40,662 nt of DNA. Origin: Minisyncoccota bacterium. Its GTDB lineage: Bacteria; Patescibacteriota; Minisyncoccia; Phycocordibacterales; CSBR16-193. Position numbers and translations under genes: made by a program. Each line of letters begins with the position of its first letter. Within the stretch, counting starts at the first letter, position 1. The stretch spans positions 1 to 40,662 of the forward strand of contig JBBDRA010000004.1 of the NCBI GenBank assembly GCA_040905715.1, in the 5' to 3' direction. The notes under the pieces were generated by a model. The model was not told where the DNA came from. It saw nothing but the letters and a program-made list of their open reading frames with translations, and did not search any database. This document shows positions 8,830-38,590 of the stretch, piece by piece.

Positions 8830-11800
8830 ATGATCTTCGCTCACAAAATACGCTTTATTGTACGCAATTTTTTGGTACTGGCAGCGGTCCTTGCAGTCAG
8901 TGTTCTTGTTGTGGCAGTTATTACTCAAGCAGCAGCTCCGTCTGGTGGATATGCTCCAGGGGCAACGCTTGATCCGGATTGTTCACCGGGCGATGCGGAC
9001 TGTACAGTTGCTGTCGGACCGGATGGAGCAACGAGTACGTTGCAGTACAACGATGGTGGTGTTTTGGGTTCAATAGCAAATTTCTTCTATGATTCCGGGA
9101 CCGGAAACATCGGTATCGGTACCTCAACACCTTCTTCGCTGTTCACTGTTTCAGGTACGATCGTTGCTAATGGGATACACGCCACCTCTACCGGCTTTAC
9201 GTTTCCTGACGGCACCACACAGACCACTGCGGCAAGTGCCGGTGCTAGCTCTGCTTCCTCAACCGGCGCGATCCAGTACTCCGACGGGTCAGGTGGATTC
9301 CTGGCAGATGCAGACAATTTCTTTTGGGATTCTTCTACAAGTCGGTTAGGAGTGGGGACGAATACCCCGAGCAGTACATTTGAAGTTGTTGGTGATAGTG
9401 TGTTGCTTAATTTCCTCGAAGATTACTCGGATTACGGCATTAAAACAGGGGGAGGTATTCACTTCTCTCAATGGAGTGATGCAGATCCAAATGTCTATTT
9501 TAATGTCTTTGAAGATGCTGGGTATTCATTTTTTAATAATGATGCAACAAATGAGCTATTGCGCATTACCAGCGATGGTCTTGTTGGTATTGGTACCAGC
9601 ACTCCATCTACGGCCCTTTCGGTCAACGGCGAAACTCTCGCGTCGTACTTCACTGCAAGCTCAACAACTGCCACCTCAACCTTCGGCAATCTCAAGCTTC
9701 TCGGTACCGGCCTAACCTTCTCCGACGGCACTCAACAAACCACCGCAGCAAGTGCCGGCGCTTCAGCTGCCTCGTCCACCGGCGCGATCCAGTACTCCGA
9801 CGGGTCAGGCGGATTTGTGGCAGATGCGGGCAACTTCTTCTGGGACGCGACAAATGATCGACTCGGTGTTGGGACCAACTCGCCAACATCACCGTTCCAT
9901 GTTTTGGCGGATACAATCTATGGGCTTACCTTGCAGCGGGATCGGTCTAGCGTTTCCTCAAATCTTATCGGATTCAACTCGAGCAATGACAGTTCGTATC
10001 TTTCCGGGTATGTGGGGTCGAAGAGTGCGCCGGGGGACGGGGAGGTGTATGTATACTCCGGATCTCGAGATGATGAAGTTCACAAGGTTGATTCTTCTGG
10101 TAACAATGTATGGGAATACACTGGGCACAGTGATGATATAAATTTTGTTGCTGTTGATTCAGACGGTAATGTGTACTCCGCATCAAATGACGATGAAGTT
10201 CACAAGATAGACTCTGCCGGGAATAACATTTGGACGTATACGGGGCATACGGGGAATGTAAGTGCTGTTGCTGTTGATTCGGGCGGTAATGTCTACTCGG
10301 CTTCAAGTGATCAGGAAGTTCATAAGATCGATTCAAGCGGCAATCAGGTTTGGACATACACCGGACACAATAGCAGTGTGAATGCTGTTGCTGTTGATTC
10401 AGACGGAAACGCATATTCCGCCTCTGATGATGACGGAGTTCACAAAGTAGATTCGAGTGGTAATCAGGTTTGGACGTATACGGGGCATAGCGACAGGATT
10501 CTTGCTGTTACTGTTGATTCGGACGGTAACGTGTATTCAGGATCTTTTAATACAGATGAGGTTCACAAGGTAGACTCGAGCGGTAATCAGGTTTGGGTGT
10601 ATTCCGGTCACAGTGAAGGTATACGGGCTATTGCATCTGATGCGGACGGTAATGTGTACTCTGCGTCGAATGATAATAGTCTCCATAAGATCGACTCAAA
10701 TGGTGATCATGTTTGGACGTATGCAGGCTACGGTAGTGCTAATGCAGTATCTGTTGCTGTTGATTCTAACGGTAATGTCTACTCCGGAGGGAATGACGAT
10801 ATTCTTCACAAGATCGACTCAAACGGTGATCAGGTCTGGACGTATACAGATCATGCCGGTTTTGTTTTGGGTGCTGCTGTCGACCCTGGTACTGAGGGTG
10901 CCGGCTTCTGGAGCGAGGCCATCCCCGCAACCGGCCCCGCGGCACTTGTTTTTGGTACGAACGAAACACCGACAAACTCCGGATCGATAGCTGAGCGTAT
11001 GCGCATCACCGGCGAGGGCTTGGTTGGCATCGGCACTACTAACCCGGACGAACTTCTCCACGTAGCCGGCAACGGACTTTTTGATGATCAATTATCCGCA
11101 GACACTCTCTCAGTTTCAACCACCACTGGTACGAGTACGTTCGCAAATGCGCTTGGTGTTGGTTCTACTTCAACGTCACTCGCAAACATTTTCAACGTTG
11201 ATGGCTCTGCTTCGATCGGTTCCTCGTACGGAGTATTTAACGCACCAACCAACGGTCTCATTATTGAGGGTAGCGTCGGTATCGGCACTACTACTCCAAC
11301 CACCGCACTCTCCGTTAACGGCGAAACTCTCGCGTCGTACTTCACTGCAAGCTCAACAACTGCCACCTCAACCTTCGGCAATCTCAAACTTCTCGGTACC
11401 GGCCTAACCTTCTCTGACGGCACTCAGCAAACCACCGCAGCTAGTGCCGGCGCCAGCGCTGCTTCGTCCACTGGCGCGATTCAGTACTCTGATGGGTCTG
11501 GTGGATTTTTGGCGGATGCAGATAATTTCTTCTGGGATGCGACAAATGATCGGCTTGGTATTGGGACAAATTCACCAGCGTCACCGTTTCATATCTCAGT
11601 GGATACAGAGTACGGTTTTACCTTGCAGCGGGATCGGTCATCACAGGGTTCGAATCTACTTCGATTTACCTCGAGTGACAATAGCTCTCATTTATCTGGG
11701 TATATTGGGTCAAGAAGTACAGCGGAAGACCAGGCTGTCTATCATTACACTGGTGATACTTCTGGAAATGTTCGTAAACTTGATTCGAGTAGTAATGTCG

Positions 11801-14028
11801 AATGGACAAATTCAAACGGCACGGGGGAAGTTATTGATGTTGCGGTTGATTCGAACGGTAATGTATACGCAGCATACTACGATGAAGATAAAATTAAAAA
11901 AATCGATTCGACAGGAAATCTTCTTTGGCAATTTGATGTTACTGGACCGCGCTCGGTTGCAGTTGGTACAGATGGATACGTATATACTGCAGGTTATGAT
12001 GATTCTGTTAGAAAAATTGATTCTTCAGGAAATCAAGTTTGGGTGAACAGTGCTGATATTTCATCCAATAATGCTATGGGTGTTGCTGTAGATACAGACG
12101 GTAATGTGTATGTGGGTGATAGTGATGCTATTAAAAAGTTTGATTCTGACGGTACTCTTATACAGTCATTTGGACAGGTTACAATGAAACTAAAAGTTGA
12201 CACCTCCGGGAACATATACAGTGGAGGAAATTCATCTGAATATGTTCGCAAGTACGATTCTGATTTCAATCTGCTTTGGACGTACAGCGGATTCGAAGAT
12301 AGTAGCGGTCCAGGTCAGTTTGATGGTATTACTGATATAGCGGTTGATGATGATGGTAATGTATATGCTGTTTCGAGGAACGATGATTGGGTGGCGAAGA
12401 TAAATTCAAATGGTAGTGAGGTATGGACGTACGATCTTTCGTCTACAGGAAGCGGAGTAGATGTTGATACGTCAGGACTTGTTTACGTAAGAGAGAACGA
12501 CAAGGTTACTATACTTGACTCGAGCGGTAATTTGGTAAGCGTCTATTCCAATTCATCAATTAATAATGCTGGCGGTATGGCTGTCGATCCTGGTTCTCAA
12601 GGCGCTGGTTTTTGGGACACGGTTGATGCTACCGGTCCCGCAGCTTTGGTGTTCGGTACCAACGAAACACCAACCGCTGCCGGCGCGGTTACTGAACGTA
12701 TGCGCATCACCGGAGAGGGGTTGGTTGGTATCGGTACGACTGCTCCTGATGAACTCCTCCACGTTGACGGGAACACGAAGGTGGGTGGTGAGTTGAAGGT
12801 TGCCACTACCACCGGCACCTCCACGATCACCAATGCTTTGGCGGTTGGTACGAGCTCAACTGATACCGCAAACCTCTTCACGGTCAGTGGCTCGGCAGTG
12901 ATCGGGTCGTCGTACGCAACAACCTCCGCGCCGACCGATGGCCTCTTAGTGGAAGGGTGGGTCGGTATCGGCACAAGCACGCCGGCGCATCCGCTAGCAC
13001 TAGCCTCAGGCGCACATGTTACCGAAGGGGGAACGTGGACTGATGCATCCAGTCGCGAGTACAAGGAGAACTTTGAGAGCCTGAGTGCGTCTACAACACT
13101 TGCCAGCATCAGAGAGCTCGATATAAGTCGATGGAACTATAAAGTTGAGAGTGAAAGTGTTCAACACATCGGACCGGTAGCCGAAGAATTTCATAAACTG
13201 TTCGGTGTTGGAACAGATAGAACCATCGCGTCGCTTGATACCTCAGGTGTTGCCCTAAGAGGAGTGCAGATACTGGCAGATCAGCATGACTTGCTTTATA
13301 GCGTACTTGACCTCTCCATAGATGATATTACGGCGGACTCAGGAGAACTTGTGCCGGAGGGAAGCAGGTTTATCGAGCTTGTAAAAGAAGCGCTCACACA
13401 TCTAGGTATTCAGATCAAGGATGGTGTTGTTTCAATTGCTCAGATCGGTGTTGAGTTGTTGCAAACGGATCGAATTGAAACACAGGAATTCTGTACTGAC
13501 GGCATCTGTCTTAACCAAAGCGAATTGAAGGCACTGATCCGTGATTATGCTCAAGGTTCTGATTCAACAGGAGATGAGGAAGAAGAGGAAAGTAATGATG
13601 CTAATGAAGAAGATAGGGGTGACGACAAGGAGACTGATCCGGATGATCAGGAAGATACAGATGATTATCCTGATGATGGCAATGCGGATGATGCTGGTAA
13701 TGAAAATGAAGACGCAGACAATGATGAGACAGAAGAAGGAAGCGAAGAAGATAACAAAAAAGAAGAGGGGGAGAAGGATGACAGTGATGAAAATGAAACT
13801 GATGACGGAGAGGGTCAAGGAGATGGTCCTGATGGTGAAGAGGGCGATGAAAAAGAATCGGGTGATGGTAGTGATGAGGACGACGAGAAGGTTGACGATG
13901 AAGAGCAGGAAACCGGCGATGAAACAGATGAAAGCGACAACGAAGACACCGATGAATCGGAGGACGATACAAGTGATGGTCAGTCTGAGGAAACAGGATC
14001 TGACGAAGGAGGTAGTGAAGATGAATAG
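8830..14028 (+). CDS. Giant tail-fibre-like surface protein with two 7-bladed beta-propellers, an S74-type intramolecular chaperone domain and a polyacidic tail
   Basis: 1732 aa. Signal/anchor FLVLAAVLAVSVLVVAVITQAAA. Recurrent fibre motifs are IQYSDGSGGF(L/V)ADA.NFFWD...RLG(V/I)GTN.P and GIGT(S/T)(T/N)P. Two blocks of 7 x ~40-aa blades. SSREYKENF...IGPVAEEF...SLDTSGV resembles the Peptidase_S74 chaperone. The last 157 aa are D/E-rich. Confidence 0.8.
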   Translation: MIFAHKIRFIVRNFLVLAAVLAVSVLVVAVITQAAAPSGGYAPGATLDPDCSPGDADCTVAVGPDGATSTLQYNDGGVLGSIANFFYDSGTGNIGIGTSTPSSLFTVSGTIVANGIHATSTGFTFPDGTTQTTAASAGASSASSTGAIQYSDGSGGFLADADNFFWDSSTSRLGVGTNTPSSTFEVVGDSVLLNFLEDYSDYGIKTGGGIHFSQWSDADPNVYFNVFEDAGYSFFNNDATNELLRITSDGLVGIGTSTPSTALSVNGETLASYFTASSTTATSTFGNLKLLGTGLTFSDGTQQTTAASAGASAASSTGAIQYSDGSGGFVADAGNFFWDATNDRLGVGTNSPTSPFHVLADTIYGLTLQRDRSSVSSNLIGFNSSNDSSYLSGYVGSKSAPGDGEVYVYSGSRDDEVHKVDSSGNNVWEYTGHSDDINFVAVDSDGNVYSASNDDEVHKIDSAGNNIWTYTGHTGNVSAVAVDSGGNVYSASSDQEVHKIDSSGNQVWTYTGHNSSVNAVAVDSDGNAYSASDDDGVHKVDSSGNQVWTYTGHSDRILAVTVDSDGNVYSGSFNTDEVHKVDSSGNQVWVYSGHSEGIRAIASDADGNVYSASNDNSLHKIDSNGDHVWTYAGYGSANAVSVAVDSNGNVYSGGNDDILHKIDSNGDQVWTYTDHAGFVLGAAVDPGTEGAGFWSEAIPATGPAALVFGTNETPTNSGSIAERMRITGEGLVGIGTTNPDELLHVAGNGLFDDQLSADTLSVSTTTGTSTFANALGVGSTSTSLANIFNVDGSASIGSSYGVFNAPTNGLIIEGSVGIGTTTPTTALSVNGETLASYFTASSTTATSTFGNLKLLGTGLTFSDGTQQTTAASAGASAASSTGAIQYSDGSGGFLADADNFFWDATNDRLGIGTNSPASPFHISVDTEYGFTLQRDRSSQGSNLLRFTSSDNSSHLSGYIGSRSTAEDQAVYHYTGDTSGNVRKLDSSSNVEWTNSNGTGEVIDVAVDSNGNVYAAYYDEDKIKKIDSTGNLLWQFDVTGPRSVAVGTDGYVYTAGYDDSVRKIDSSGNQVWVNSADISSNNAMGVAVDTDGNVYVGDSDAIKKFDSDGTLIQSFGQVTMKLKVDTSGNIYSGGNSSEYVRKYDSDFNLLWTYSGFEDSSGPGQFDGITDIAVDDDGNVYAVSRNDDWVAKINSNGSEVWTYDLSSTGSGVDVDTSGLVYVRENDKVTILDSSGNLVSVYSNSSINNAGGMAVDPGSQGAGFWDTVDATGPAALVFGTNETPTAAGAVTERMRITGEGLVGIGTTAPDELLHVDGNTKVGGELKVATTTGTSTITNALAVGTSSTDTANLFTVSGSAVIGSSYATTSAPTDGLLVEGWVGIGTSTPAHPLALASGAHVTEGGTWTDASSREYKENFESLSASTTLASIRELDISRWNYKVESESVQHIGPVAEEFHKLFGVGTDRTIASLDTSGVALRGVQILADQHDLLYSVLDLSIDDITADSGELVPEGSRFIELVKEALTHLGIQIKDGVVSIAQIGVELLQTDRIETQEFCTDGICLNQSELKALIRDYAQGSDSTGDEEEEESNDANEEDRGDDKETDPDDQEDTDDYPDDGNADDAGNENEDADNDETEEGSEEDNKKEEGEKDDSDENETDDGEGQGDGPDGEEGDEKESGDGSDEDDEKVDDEEQETGDETDESDNEDTDESEDDTSDGQSEETGSDEGGSEDE
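9625..9761 (+). repeat. Intragenic near-identical segment, copy A (partner at 11317-11453)
   Basis: 137 nt with 4 mismatches versus copy B, including a 71-nt identical run (9625-9695 = 11317-11387). The offset of 1692 nt is in frame. Confidence 0.9.
10042..10890 (+). repeat. Seven tandem ~120-nt coding repeats (propeller 1, highly uniform blades)
   Basis: (E/G/S/I)(V/L)HK(V/I)DS.G(N/D).(V/I)W.Y.G(H/Y)...AV(A/T)VDS.GN(V/A)YS occurs 7 times. The DNA motif GCTGTTGCTGTTGATTC recurs at about 10146, 10266, 10386, 10503 and 10750. Confidence 0.85.
11317..11453 (+). repeat. Intragenic near-identical segment, copy B
   Basis: See copy A. Flanking homologous sequence drops to roughly three-quarters identity by eye. 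Confidence 0.9.
11734..12593 (+). repeat. Seven divergent ~40-aa blades (propeller 2)
   Basis: VRKLDSSSNVEW, IKKIDSTGNLLW, VRKIDSSGNQVW, IKKFDSDGTLIQ, VRKYDSDFNLLW, VAKINSNGSEVW, VTILDSSGNLVS. Confidence 0.75.
13030..13330 (+). other. Peptidase_S74-like intramolecular chaperone / autoproteolysis domain (within the CDS)
   Basis: GTWTDASSREYKENFESLSASTTLASIRELDISRWNYKVESESVQHIGPVAEEFHKLFGVGTDRTIASLDTSGVALRGVQIL fits the S-(D/S)-R-x-x-K-x-N ... GxIAQE ... D..g pattern of endosialidase and tail-fibre C-terminal chaperones. Confidence 0.6.
13555..14025 (+). repeat. 157-aa D/E-rich low-complexity tail (GAT/GAA-rich DNA)
   Basis: Read directly from the translation (GSDSTGDEEEEESNDANEEDRGDD...GGSEDE). 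Confidence 0.9.
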
Positions 14029-15215: not shown

Positions 15216-15243
15216 TCAACGCCTCAACGCGTTGAGGCGTTGA
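15216..15243. repeat. 28-nt perfect palindrome after gap (hairpin with no U-tract)
   Basis: TCAACGCCTCAACG/CGTTGAGGCGTTGA. Confidence 0.8.
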
Positions 15244-25560: not shown

Positions 25561-25633
25561 GCCACCTTAGCTCAGTTGGTAGAGCAACGGTTTTGTAAAC
25601 CGTAGGTCGTCAGTTCGAATCTGACAGGTGGCT
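25561..25633 (+). tRNA. tRNA-Thr (anticodon UGU), CCA not encoded
   Basis: Cloverleaf folded by hand: acceptor GCCACCT/AGGTGGC, D arm GCTC-AGTTGGTA-GAGC, anticodon arm ACGGT-TTTGTAA-ACCGT, variable AGGTC, T arm GTCAG-TTCGAAT-CTGAC. Confidence 0.9.
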
Positions 25634-25670
25634 CACGAGCTTAACAATTCAGTTAGTAAATAGTACAGAA

Positions 25671-25699
25671 ACCTATGCAACACCGGGTGTTGCATAGGT
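25671..25699. repeat. 29-nt perfect palindrome (REP-like), copy 1
   Basis: ACCTATGCAACACC-G-GGTGTTGCATAGGT. Confidence 0.95.
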
Positions 25700-25710
25700 T
25701 GGTGGATGCT

Positions 25711-26364
25711 TTATTCAAAGCCGGTTTTTGCAGGGCTCGTGTTTACAAAGTCGACGTAGTTAGTCGAATCTTTGAATTGATCAAGTAGTACAGCTTGATC
25801 CAACAAAGGTCCCCATCGGTTTAAAGATGTATAGTCAGGGAAACTCGACCATTCGTATCGATGCTCCTTTCCCGCCCATCCTTTTAGTTCTCTAGGGTTT
25901 CGGTGAATATATGCTGAGGCGTGAAGAAGTTGTGTGTTTGAGCTAATGTGTTGGGCTTGGAATTCTTTTTCAAATAGGTGGCCGGATCTATCATATTTCG
26001 TATTAAAGTATTTAGCATAACTGTTCAAAACTCGTTTCATATACTGGCTAATGCCACCGTCTTCCAGTTGTTGTAAAATCATGTGAAAATGGTTTGGCAT
26101 AATACAAAAGGCAACGAGACTCACAGCTCTGTTAGTGGCTATGTCATCTGCAATTGGTTGGGTAATGCCAAATGATCTTGTTTTGATGTATCGCAATGAT
26201 AGGAGAGAAGGATTAGAAATACGTTTAAGCGACTGGCTTGCCAGGATCGGCAGTAAGAATCTGGCTTTGTCTCCATTCAATTCAAATATGGGTTGTTTAT
26301 TGATGCCGCGTTGATATACGTGGTAGAACTCATGTGTCGCAAGAGGAACTTCTCGAATAGCCAT
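25711..26364 (-). CDS. REP-associated tyrosine transposase (RayT-like, Y1/HUH)
   Basis: 217 aa from ATG 26364. The track ORF extends to 26706, but that extension only translates the palindrome and antisense pheS. Motifs: FYHVYQRG, HUH motif IMPNHFHMIL, catalytic-Tyr region AYIHRNP, YEWSSFPDY. Confidence 0.8.
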   Translation of the reverse strand: MAIREVPLATHEFYHVYQRGINKQPIFELNGDKARFLLPILASQSLKRISNPSLLSLRYIKTRSFGITQPIADDIATNRAVSLVAFCIMPNHFHMILQQLEDGGISQYMKRVLNSYAKYFNTKYDRSGHLFEKEFQAQHISSNTQLLHASAYIHRNPRELKGWAGKEHRYEWSSFPDYTSLNRWGPLLDQAVLLDQFKDSTNYVDFVNTSPAKTGFE

Positions 26365-26391
26365 ATGTTTTTTAATTTTAACATCTTTGTC

Positions 26392-26420
26392 ACCTATGCA
26401 ACACCCGGTGTTGCATAGGT
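26392..26420. repeat. 29-nt perfect palindrome (REP-like), copy 2, inverted relative to copy 1
   Basis: ACCTATGCAACACC-C-GGTGTTGCATAGGT; the central base is the complement of copy 1. Confidence 0.95.
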
Positions 26421-26448
26421 ACAGGTACGCTCTATGCGATTCACCAAT

Positions 26449-26471
26449 GCGGTTCACCAAACCGCTTTTTT
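26449..26471 (+). terminator. Rho-independent terminator insulating pheS from the mobile unit
   Basis: GCGGTT-CACCA-AACCGC followed by TTTTTT. Confidence 0.6.
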
Positions 26472-26474
26472 CTG

Positions 26475-26480
26475 TATAAT
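26475..26480 (+). promoter_or_regulatory. -10 box TATAAT 10 nt upstream of the pheS ATG
   Basis: Read directly. No SD. Confidence 0.4.
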
Positions 26481-26490
26481 AAAGCCTATT

Positions 26491-27216
26491 ATGACCGAAG
26501 GACACTACCACCCCATTACGCGAATGAACCGACAGATCAACGATATTTTTTTTGATCTTGGGTTTGAAGTAGTCGACGGTCCCGAGGTAGAGGACGAGTG
26601 GCATAATTTTGACGCACTCAATATTCCACCACACCATCCGGCGCGAGATATGTGGGATACGTTTTGGTTGAAAGGAGAAAATCCGCGCAAGCTTCTTCGC
26701 ACGCACACGTCACCGATCCAGATTCGGCACATGGAGGAGCATGGTGCACCGGTGCGTATTATTGCCCCGGGTAAGACATTTCGAAATGAAGCAACCGATG
26801 CGACCCATGAGGCGCAGTTTTACCAGGTTGAGGGTCTGCTTATTGCCCAAGACATAACAATGGCGCATCTGAAAACAACACTTACGACTTTCTTTCAAAA
26901 ACTTTTTCATGCGGATATTCACGCACGACTGCGACCGAGTTATTTCCCGTTTGTTGAGCCCGGCGTGGAAATGGATATATCGTGTTTTCTCTGCGAGAGC
27001 AAGGGGTGCCGGGTTTGTAAGCAGACCGGCTGGATCGAGGTTTTGGGTGCAGGAATGGTGCATCCGAATGTGCTCACAAATGTGGGACTCGATTCGGCGA
27101 AATGGCAAGGCTTTGCGTTCGGTGGAGGAACCGATCGATTTGCAATGCTTAAGTACGGTATTGATGATGTGCGTAAGTTGTATACGGGAGATCTGAGGGT
27201 GGTAAATCAATTTTAG
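26491..27216 (+). CDS. pheS: Phenylalanyl-tRNA synthetase alpha subunit, catalytic core only
   Basis: 241 aa from ATG 26491. Motifs: HPITRMNRQINDIFFDLGFEVVDGPEVE, HPARDMWDTFW, FRNEATDATHEAQFYQVEG, GAGMVHPNV, FAFGGGTDR. No N-terminal coiled-coil domain is encoded. Confidence 0.85.
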   Translation: MTEGHYHPITRMNRQINDIFFDLGFEVVDGPEVEDEWHNFDALNIPPHHPARDMWDTFWLKGENPRKLLRTHTSPIQIRHMEEHGAPVRIIAPGKTFRNEATDATHEAQFYQVEGLLIAQDITMAHLKTTLTTFFQKLFHADIHARLRPSYFPFVEPGVEMDISCFLCESKGCRVCKQTGWIEVLGAGMVHPNVLTNVGLDSAKWQGFAFGGGTDRFAMLKYGIDDVRKLYTGDLRVVNQF

Positions 27217-32213: not shown

Positions 32214-32253
32214 AAAATAAACACTAAAGACTGCAGTCTTTAGTGTTTATTTT
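32214..32253. terminator. 40-nt perfect palindrome (A-tract/T-tract flanked): bidirectional terminator and repeat-family member
   Basis: AAAATAAACACTAAAGACTG/CAGTCTTTAGTGTTTATTTT, checked base by base. Confidence 0.65.
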
Positions 32254-37930: not shown

Positions 37931-38590
37931 ATGCCCAAATATCTTATAGGAATTGATGAAGCCGGCCGTGGCCCTCTTGCCGGACCGCTCTCGGTAGCGG
38001 CGGTGTGTGTGCCGGTAGGAGTGAATATTTTGGACATCTGTGAGGGGGTAACTGACTCCAAAAAGCTCTCGCCGGAACGTCGCGAGGAGATCTATCGCGT
38101 ACTTGAAAATGCCCAAATTAAAAATAGCAGACCCCGGAGTTCGGATAAGGCTATGCAACACCGGGTGTTGCATAGGGGCGGGGAGGTATGTATGTACGCG
38201 CATACGCACGTAATGCCGTCGACACTTGACCGGTGGGGTATGACCAAGTCGCTTCAGGTTGCGGTGGCTCGGGTGCTTGGGAAATTGCCGGTCGATCCGA
38301 AGGAAGTAAGAGTGTTGCTCGACGGCTCTTTGAAAGCACCGGCTGAATACGAGAACCAGGAGACGATCATTAAAGGTGACTGCTCTGAGTCGATCATCGG
38401 CGCGGCATCGATCATTGCCAAGGTACGCCGGGACCAGTCAATGGTGCGGTATGCTAAGCAGTATCCCGAATACGGTTTCGAGCAACATAAAGGGTATGGC
38501 ACAGTAGTGCACCGGGCTAGAATCAAAAAATATGGTCCATGTGTCATTCACCGGAAACGTTTTATCAAACGTTTGATCCGGGATCTATGA
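37931..38590 (+). CDS. rnhB: Ribonuclease HII carrying an in-frame palindrome-containing insertion
   Basis: 219 aa. GIDEAGRGPLAGP, DSKKLS, LLDG, IIGAASIIAKVRRD, HKGYG. About 24 extra residues lie between DSKKLS and the LD..G helix. TGA stop. Confidence 0.88.
   Translation: MPKYLIGIDEAGRGPLAGPLSVAAVCVPVGVNILDICEGVTDSKKLSPERREEIYRVLENAQIKNSRPRSSDKAMQHRVLHRGGEVCMYAHTHVMPSTLDRWGMTKSLQVAVARVLGKLPVDPKEVRVLLDGSLKAPAEYENQETIIKGDCSESIIGAASIIAKVRRDQSMVRYAKQYPEYGFEQHKGYGTVVHRARIKKYGPCVIHRKRFIKRLIRDL
38151..38175. repeat. REP-like palindrome, copy 3 (25-nt core) inside the rnhB coding sequence
   Basis: CTATGCAACACC-G-GGTGTTGCATAG is identical to the core of copies 1 and 2. It translates in frame as AMQHRVLHR. 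Confidence 0.95.

Follow-up and report, generated by a model that had tools for sequence, protein, structure and literature searches.

The 40,662 nucleotides analysed here (contig JBBDRA010000004.1 of the Minisyncoccota bacterium assembly GCA_040905715.1, positions 1 to 40,662 of the forward strand; hereafter the window) hold a gene for a Y1 HUH transposase-like protein that is bracketed by two inverted copies of a perfect palindrome, and a further copy of the palindrome lies in frame within the rnhB gene. We consider it probable that these components form an atypical, low-copy ('REPtron'-like) system of the Patescibacteria (Paceibacteria), akin to the pairing of repetitive extragenic palindromic (REP) sequences with REP-associated tyrosine transposases (RAYTs). 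This assignment is built on the anatomy of the locus, the homology and fold of the protein, purifying selection on its gene, covariation in the palindrome stems and an architecture that recurs across the protein family, each of which the analysis shows. A system of the REP/RAYT type had been proposed at this place from the letters of the DNA (referred to below as the sequence-only reading).

The 3'-flanking palindrome, ACCTATGCAACACC-G-GGTGTTGCATAGGT at 25671-25699, starts 10-11 nt beyond the stop codon of the Y1 gene and 36 nt beyond tRNA-Thr; with one extra pair it becomes a strand-neutral, 31-nt perfect palindrome at 25670-25700 with G at its centre on the forward strand. The 5'-flanking palindrome (26392-26420; 29 nt, perfect and likewise strand-neutral) is found 27 nt upstream of the Y1 start codon, in the intergenic region between the divergent Y1 and pheS genes. 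It is the same 29-mer as the 3' copy except for the central base, which is C instead of G on the forward strand, and the two copies are therefore inverted. The third, gene-less copy at 38151-38175 in rnhB has a 25-nt perfect core with G at its centre, and 26 of 29 positions match the 29-mer when the comparison is extended to 38149-38177. The coordinates, the complementary central base and the distances to the start and stop codons given in the sequence-only reading are confirmed. A search of the 40.7-kb window with the 11-mer arm, allowing up to one mismatch, found no further degenerate copies and returned these three places only. Folded as single-stranded DNA hairpins, the 3' copy reaches a calculated -14.7 kcal/mol (z-score -6.8), the 5' copy -14.2 kcal/mol (z-score -5.6) and the rnhB copy -10.9 kcal/mol (z-score -4.4).

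Palindromes can break or confuse de Bruijn assemblies, and in one Logan run (X4) unitigs do end at these palindromes, which gives a foothold to the view that the repeats arose by chance or in assembly. However, no palindrome matches occurred in 100 dinucleotide-preserving shuffles of the window, and the palindromes, including the rnhB copy, are present in six independent assemblies, namely two NCBI metagenome-assembled genomes (MAGs) and four Logan assemblies. The window sequence is contained in JBBDKD010000007.1 (121,914 bp; MAG GCA_040879545.1; sediment metagenome). The arrangement also recurs in a second species and in seven further genomes. An origin by chance or artefact, already refuted by the independent assemblies, retains next to no probability.

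The Y1 gene (25711..26364, reverse strand) runs from an ATG at 26364-26362 to a TAA at 25713-25711, 27 nt and 11 nt from the respective palindromes, and encodes 217 amino acids. As anticipated, a profile hidden Markov model search finds Y1 homology: the protein matches Pfam Y1_Tnp (PF01797) with 41.1 bits against a cut-off of 23. The HUH motif noted in the sequence-only reading, MPNHFHMIL, is encoded at 26083-26091 (H92-F-H94), and the putative catalytic tyrosine, Tyr152, at 25909-25911 within SAYIHRNPRE. In an alignment of 15 family members H92, H94, Y152, N156 and W172-S173-S174 are invariant; the tyrosine region reads Y152-I-H-R-N-P-R-E-L-K-G-W and so keeps the Y-x-x-x-N-P pattern. The NCBIfam RAYT equivalog model NF047646 aligns over profile positions 41-146 to residues 75-173, from HUH through the tyrosine to W-S-S, and scores 46.3 bits at E 3.7e-12, short of the cut-off of 80. 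Each of the 15 family members tested is hit by this model, at E values down to 1e-12, and each stays under the cut-off. The IS200/IS605 model NF033573 gives no match to the window protein at E<=1 and weak matches, at about E 1.6e-3, to 2 of 15 relatives.

An AlphaFold2 model of the protein has a mean predicted local distance difference test (pLDDT) score of 86 and a predicted template modelling (pTM) score of 0.87. In a Foldseek search with this model the first-ranked structure is 4ER8_A, the E. coli TnpA_REP in complex with a REP hairpin (E 1.7e-5; target-normalised TM score 0.69), and the IS608 and ISDra2 TnpA structures rank lower, with TM scores of 0.5-0.59. Sequence-only searches of the PDB cannot separate the two, giving E values of 0.01-0.15 for both ISDra2 TnpA and 4ER8. 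Judged from its sequence, the protein is a Y1 HUH enzyme. Its gene is under purifying selection, with dN/dS of 0.10 against the orthologue described in the next paragraph.

When the GTDB representative set was searched for the 23-nt core of the palindrome, one other genome was found to contain it, the MAG Candidatus Paceibacterota LejiaA_56_15 (hereafter LejiaA). Here the Y1 protein is 91% identical and occupies the same site (locus L002), in the order rpsB, tsf, an open reading frame (ORF), tRNA, palindrome, Y1 gene, palindrome and pheS. The palindrome centres are again G in the 3' copy and C in the 5' copy. The 5' palindrome is identical between the two species, and the 3' palindrome shows a compensatory A.T to C.G change in its outer stem (AACC...GGTT in the window vs ACCC...GGGT in L002). 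Beyond the palindromes the sequence is unconserved between the window and LejiaA, which implies that the repeat unit is the palindrome alone. An exact-pattern scan of the LejiaA MAG finds four copies in total and a single palindrome-bracketed unit; the two gene-less copies are both intergenic, one downstream of recR (L001, with A at its centre) and the other, L003, with secD on one side and an aminopeptidase gene on the other.

Within the syntenic region no DNA is better conserved between the two species than the Y1 gene, with 88-90% nucleotide identity (window 25749-26348 vs L002) compared with about 55-85% for tsf, pheS and pheT. The proportion of synonymous differences (pS) is 0.34 for the Y1 gene vs 0.77 for tsf. 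This low divergence suggests either recent exchange between co-occurring relatives or an extra constraint at the level of the DNA; simple vertical descent accounts for it less well than recent lateral exchange.

The window protein belongs to a large family. A word-sharing search returned 278 matches, of which all the named ones come from Patescibacteria/Parcubacteria and carry the label 'transposase'; an exhaustive search of clusters at 50% identity returned 17,044 matches at E<=1e-3, 5,642 at E<=1e-10 and 93 at E<=1e-30. In a scan of viral contigs with the family profile we found one distant homologue, 27% identical (L026, 3001-3522, IMGVR_UViG_3300033553_000531). Nine further loci around homologues of 45-55% identity were examined, eight of them with contig extending past the gene. 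In seven of these eight the gene is flanked by palindromes, the upstream one 14-28 nt from the start codon and the downstream one 1-64 nt from the stop codon. Most are perfect; those of L016 and L024 are degenerate, and the L024 palindromes are imperfect versions of the same plan. Counted over homologues of 45-91% identity, eight of nine other genomes have such genome-specific palindromes, and the contig of the ninth ends after the gene. The flanking copies are inverted in five of the six other informative loci. The arms vary between genomes and usually match within a genome (TGGTCAACAC, TGTTAAACAC, ATTAAACAC and TGTCCAACAC), with an inner AACAC...GTGTT retained among them. This core is missing from the downstream palindrome of L014, whose two sides carry different palindromes, and from the L021 palindrome, which is the same on both sides of its gene.

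The genomic contexts of the homologues differ between clades and are conserved within them. One homologue of 50% identity is also divergent from pheS. At loci L013, L014 and L021 (around 9800-11400 in each) the homologue adjoins rpsS: in two genomes it is antisense between rpsS and rplB, within the otherwise contiguous S10 ribosomal-protein operon, and the L021 gene follows rpsS directly, its contig ending after the gene. Near the L024 homologue an epimerase gene (11709-12735) has intein and LAGLIDADG domains.

The variation of the arms was examined in an alignment of 17 palindromes from seven genomes with 13 stem pairs, and was compared with 500 shuffles. Within the stems 90.7% of cells are paired, and eight of the 13 pairs have changed on both sides. 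Four pairs combine 100% pairing with two to three pair types each, and five inner pairs are invariant. None of the 500 shuffles attains the observed pairing or covariation score, and registers slid out of alignment give 29-43% pairing. The covariation cannot separate a single-stranded hairpin from a dyad-symmetric, double-stranded binding site.

Copies of the palindrome without a Y1 gene were also seen near the homologues, 9.7 kb from the gene at L013 and 4.2 kb from it at L020, and about 165 kb of related loci hold three gene-less copies. The case in the window itself is the copy in rnhB (37931-38590, forward strand; RNase HII, 219 aa; Pfam RNase_HII 118 bits, with PDB sequence matches). The sequence-only reading had located this third copy correctly and had not noticed that it is intragenic: it is in frame, with codons 74-82 (38150-38176) encoding A-M-Q-H-R-V-L-H-R. 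These residues belong to an insertion loop of RNase HII at about residues 64-83 (38120..38179, forward strand). Residues 62-94 align to just seven residues of the Thermotoga maritima enzyme (3O3G), and the insertion is missing from nine of 12 aligned homologues from Patescibacteria. AlphaFold2 predicts a coil for residues 64-83, at pLDDT below 50, flanked by a helix (48-63) and a strand (88-94), while most other blocks of residues have pLDDT of about 85-97. The rnhB copy is therefore best described as a tolerated loop insertion.

In the RNase HII of L005, which is about 75% identical, the same insertion contains a perfect palindrome with C at its centre, and this changes H-R-V to H-P-V. The dnaE fragment beside this rnhB gene is 93% identical, and the divergence is about that of LejiaA. 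The L006 enzyme, at 69-72% amino-acid identity by alignment, carries a shorter, decayed version. Because the insertion is common to two or three lineages, the rnhB copy is old. No clean empty site that would define its insertion boundaries or a target motif was found among these relatives, the L006 version being decayed. Upstream of the L005 palindrome, at about 600-640, we also observed an in-frame 12-nt tandem duplication (ACTGTCAGACCC twice) and a different in-frame 21-nt palindrome, GTCAGACCCCGGGGGTCTGAC.

A further site lies inside the Y1 genes. At L015, L016-19, L020 and L022 the genome's own palindrome is also present within the Y1 gene, at nt 171-193, and L024 has an imperfect internal palindrome at about nt 175; counted together, five genes have an internal copy, four of them perfect. 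The site encodes V/I-K/Q-H-S/R-V-F/L-N/D, and its motif [KQ]H[RSP]V[FL] occurs in 49 of 121 family proteins. Residues encoded by opposite arms go together: 32 proteins combine K with F (AAA/TTT), 12 combine Q with L (CAA/TTG), and five are mixed. Ser (TCG) and Arg (CGA), whose codons are mutual reverse complements, each occupy the central position in 24 proteins. This pattern, seen in the sequences, would fit a DNA palindrome with a flipping loop rather than a constraint at the level of the protein. The rnhB copy varies in the same way, with G at its centre in the window and C in the L005 orthologue. In the Y1 genes of the window and LejiaA the internal site reads Y-I-K-T-R-S-F-G and the palindrome has been lost.

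One speculative extension, which we regard as unlikely, is that the system is a self-maintaining module of three hairpins. Here the enzyme would keep the 5', in-ORF and 3' hairpins identical through repeated replacement or flipping by single-strand cleavage and rejoining, and a flip of the in-ORF hairpin would toggle the enzyme between its Ser and Arg forms, providing a DNA-level switch or autoregulatory device in a domesticated transposase. Such a module, if true, would have been retained in genomes otherwise stripped of mobile DNA, often in clusters of ribosomal-protein and aminoacyl-tRNA-synthetase genes.

The internal and rnhB copies also bear on a different explanation, in which the palindromes serve a domesticated DNA-binding protein, either as double-stranded DNA operators or as mRNA hairpins, for autoregulation and at a few extra sites; they would not be mobile and would be kept alike by co-evolution. 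Their fixed position 14-28 nt upstream of the start codon, the additional site at about nt 171-175 in several genes, their perfect dyad symmetry and very low copy number, and the inability of the covariation to tell a hairpin from a dimer-bound site would all suit an operator. An in-frame copy in rnhB is hard to account for in these terms, however, and the signatures of loop inversion (G vs C; Ser vs Arg, 24:24) point to rearrangement of the DNA. Furthermore, the HUH and tyrosine residues are invariant under purifying selection, which argues that chemistry, and not mere binding, has been retained. A consensus scan for promoters and terminators did not call the palindromes as terminators. On balance we find the operator explanation quite improbable.

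Somewhat easier to entertain, and still doubtful in our view, is an ordinary autonomous IS200-like insertion sequence (IS), with the unit of about 750 bp being mobile, the palindromes serving as its end hairpins, and the single copy reflecting the tiny genome. The size of the unit and its single Y1 gene suit an insertion sequence, as do the different genomic contexts of the homologues across lineages. Between two co-occurring species, moreover, the unit has diverged less than the DNA on either side of it, as would be the case after recent lateral exchange. In run X4 a 35-nt tRNA-Thr-like match and pheS-like sequence are linked in one contig (depth 10), which passes from 25636 to 26635 and skips 998 nt; this ambiguous joint is a possible empty site and could derive from a relative without the Y1 unit. 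Logan contigs (as opposed to reads) covering the Y1 locus and the solo site of the relative revealed neither a clean empty site nor an excision junction; at the L001 solo site the intergenic DNA is too diverged for presence or absence to be scored in the species of the window.

The outcome expected of an ordinary insertion sequence, several whole units and no solo palindromes elsewhere, was named in the sequence-only reading and is not what we see, as gene-less palindromes exist and exact-pattern scans of the window and of the LejiaA MAG each find a single palindrome-bracketed unit. The unit occupies the same site in two species, and in three genomes the homologues share the same ribosomal-operon site; such conserved chromosomal positions, like the gene-less palindromes, set the system apart from IS200/IS605 elements. 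IS200/IS605 ends are distinct, imperfect subterminal hairpins (left end and right end) on one strand, whereas the ends here are identical, perfect, inverted palindromes. The protein has the HUH/Tyr core of the IS200/IS605 TnpA enzymes (IS608, ISDra2; 2A6M, 2XM3), hairpins stand at both ends of a unit of about 0.7 kb as they do in those elements, and a comparable single-strand mechanism would be expected. At 217 aa, however, it exceeds the roughly 130-150 aa of these enzymes, the NCBIfam IS200 model does not match it, and its structural similarity to them is weaker than to 4ER8, leaving TnpA_REP as the nearest fold.

In the REP/RAYT-like system that we favour, the Y1 protein would act as an HUH endonuclease and transferase of single-stranded DNA, with H92 and H94 as metal ligands and Y152 as the nucleophile. 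It may recognize the single-stranded hairpin of its cognate palindrome, two inverted copies of which bracket the gene. The likely recognition element is the top of the stem, with its invariant AACAC/GTGTT, together with the loop, while the outer stem would need only to pair. Occasional cleavage and strand transfer at these hairpins could copy, replace or flip the palindromes, and such copying and flipping would yield copies that are identical within a genome together with rare gene-less copies, such as the loop insertion in rnhB.

A comparison with the REP/RAYT systems of the Gammaproteobacteria (E. coli YafM/RayT, 4ER8) shows several points of likeness. These are the Y1 HUH motif, Y-x-x-x-N-P and C-terminal W-S-S of the protein, inverted cognate palindromes that bracket the gene and lie close to its stop codon, co-variation of protein and palindrome between genomes with gene-less copies elsewhere, and what appears to be a single gene per genome, at a conserved site. 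In structure the protein matches 4ER8 best, and among sequence models that of the RAYTs.

Other observations weigh against this assignment. The copy number is low, with three copies in 48.6 kb of this genome, one of them gene-less, and so is far below that of described REP families: a handful here compared with tens to hundreds. There are no REPIN or BIME (bacterial interspersed mosaic element) doublets in the window, where the sole pair less than 1 kb apart is the one bracketing the gene. A canonical REP is an imperfect, GC-rich stem-loop with a GT(A/G)G head at its foot (PMC2817692, PMC6006769). Here the head (GTAG) is absent; the palindromes have a centre of 1-3 nt, unconserved flanks and perfect stems that are AT-rich at the base, and no imperfect GC-rich stem is present. 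The protein misses the cut-off of the RAYT model and reads NPRELK in place of the RAYT-specific motif NP(L/V)(R/K)xG beside the catalytic tyrosine (Nunvar 2010, PMC2817692). It also has an extra helical segment of about 30-40 aa between beta1 and the HUH strand, and its host genome is well under 1 Mb. The evolution of the Y1 gene is slower than that of the neighbouring genes, contrary to what Nunvar observed (PMC2817692). In addition, the low divergence of the Y1 gene that would fit recent lateral exchange, the age of the rnhB copy, for which no empty site that would mark a recent insertion was found among relatives, and the ambiguity of the stem covariation all count on this side. Hairpin binding, cleavage and enzyme-driven dispersal or homogenization are inferred.

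The proposal made in the sequence-only reading thus stands as regards the matches to Y1 and RAYT models, the 4ER8-like fold, the inverted flanks, the gene-less copies and the synteny in a second species. It does not extend to the copy number, the head, REPINs, the model cut-off or an extragenic location of the solo copy in the window. Because the model cut-off, the head and GC-rich stem, the NP(L/V)(R/K)xG motif, the copy number and the REPINs all fail, we place the system outside the described RAYT groups, as a RAYT-like system. Bertels 2017 reported 57-140 copies for RAYT groups 2 and 3 and 12-14 for groups 1 and 4 (PMC5581495); our gene-less copies are far more than chance would give, far below groups 2 and 3, and probably below groups 1 and 4.

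In-frame palindromes of this kind have a precedent. In TnpAY1 subclass 2.4, REP sequences are inserted in frame in the tnpA_REP gene itself and in loops of unrelated genes (PMC6006769). The system described here, which we compared with this subclass alongside subclass 2.6/class 3, likewise has in-frame palindromes in its own and in unrelated genes. The subclass 2.4 insertions are placed between the HUH and tyrosine motifs, whereas the internal palindrome here has a fixed place upstream of HUH (nt 171-193) and is decayed in the Y1 gene of the window. A palindromic repeat tolerated in frame in a surface loop of a housekeeping enzyme, as in rnhB, also resembles the Rickettsia palindromic elements. 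Those elements are about 100-150 bp long, numerous, and have no known cognate transposase, while the element here, with its 25 nt, is accompanied by a cognate Y1 gene.

The locus is surrounded by housekeeping genes, in the order rpsB, tsf, a 130-aa ORF, tRNA-Thr, the bracketed Y1 gene, pheS and pheT. The tRNA-Thr(TGT) that adjoins the unit, as had been reported, lies at 25561-25634 on the forward strand (ARAGORN; Rfam tRNA 74.8 bits) and is context outside the system; tRNA is the sole RNA family matched by Rfam in the window. The Y1 gene is antisense to most genes of the window, which are mostly on the forward strand, and the window shows positive GC skew throughout. A PADLOC search matched no defence system. 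Upstream of pheS, at 26449-26480, a 6-bp stem GCGGTT...AACCGC is followed by TTTTTTCTGT and a TATAAT box, and the CTTTTTCTGTATAAT portion is kept in the related species; a role as promoter or leader element of pheS is possible.

The window also holds palindromes of other kinds. A second, unrelated family has arms TAAACACTAAAGAC, with four arm matches where 0.29 would be expected; where the gyrB and thrS genes converge (32214-32253) it makes up a 40-nt perfect palindrome, and at 130-193 it occurs as two arms with a 36-nt spacer. Its outer part, ATAAACAC...GTGTTTAT, is similar to the ATTAAACAC...GTGTTTAAT palindromes of distant Y1 homologues. Another perfect palindrome, TCAACGCCTCAACG/CGTTGAGGCGTTGA, spans the 28 nt at 15216-15243; its 14-nt arms adjoin directly, and it is unrelated to the Y1 palindromes. 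Outside the window, a metagenome-contig scan gave a single match to the 23-nt core, within a longer palindrome (GGAGATATGCAACACCCGGTGTTGCATATCTCC) at 3585-3619 of L004 (Ga0207703_10000630). This unrelated, high-GC contig has no Y1 gene among the listed ORFs of the surrounding 3.5 kb, and the match was judged to be due to chance.

Quentin et al. 2018 reported an enrichment of non-IS tnpAY1 genes in large genomes and found none in 35 Mollicutes (PMC6006769), in a data set that includes no Patescibacteria. Our literature searches for RAYTs, TnpA_REP or IS200 palindromes in Patescibacteria, the candidate phyla radiation (CPR) or Parcubacteria found nothing relevant, in line with the earlier remark that such a system is uncharacterised in these lineages. 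The concept and in-frame REP insertions are already known; a large, conserved family in genomes well under 1 Mb, with many members seated in clusters of core genes, is mildly surprising.

REP/RAYT systems are the textbook case of a domesticated transposase with its own non-autonomous repeats, and have been described mainly in proteobacteria and in other bacteria whose genomes are medium-sized to large. The same logic would now apply to the ultra-small genomes of Patescibacteria, in a very large family that NCBI labels merely 'transposase', and would offer a compact, tractable model for the co-evolution of a Y1 enzyme with its hairpin. For annotation, these Y1 genes are probably not active insertion sequences, and their palindromes break short-read assemblies. 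The finding also raises the question of what benefit keeps a Y1 gene under purifying selection in a streamlined genome.

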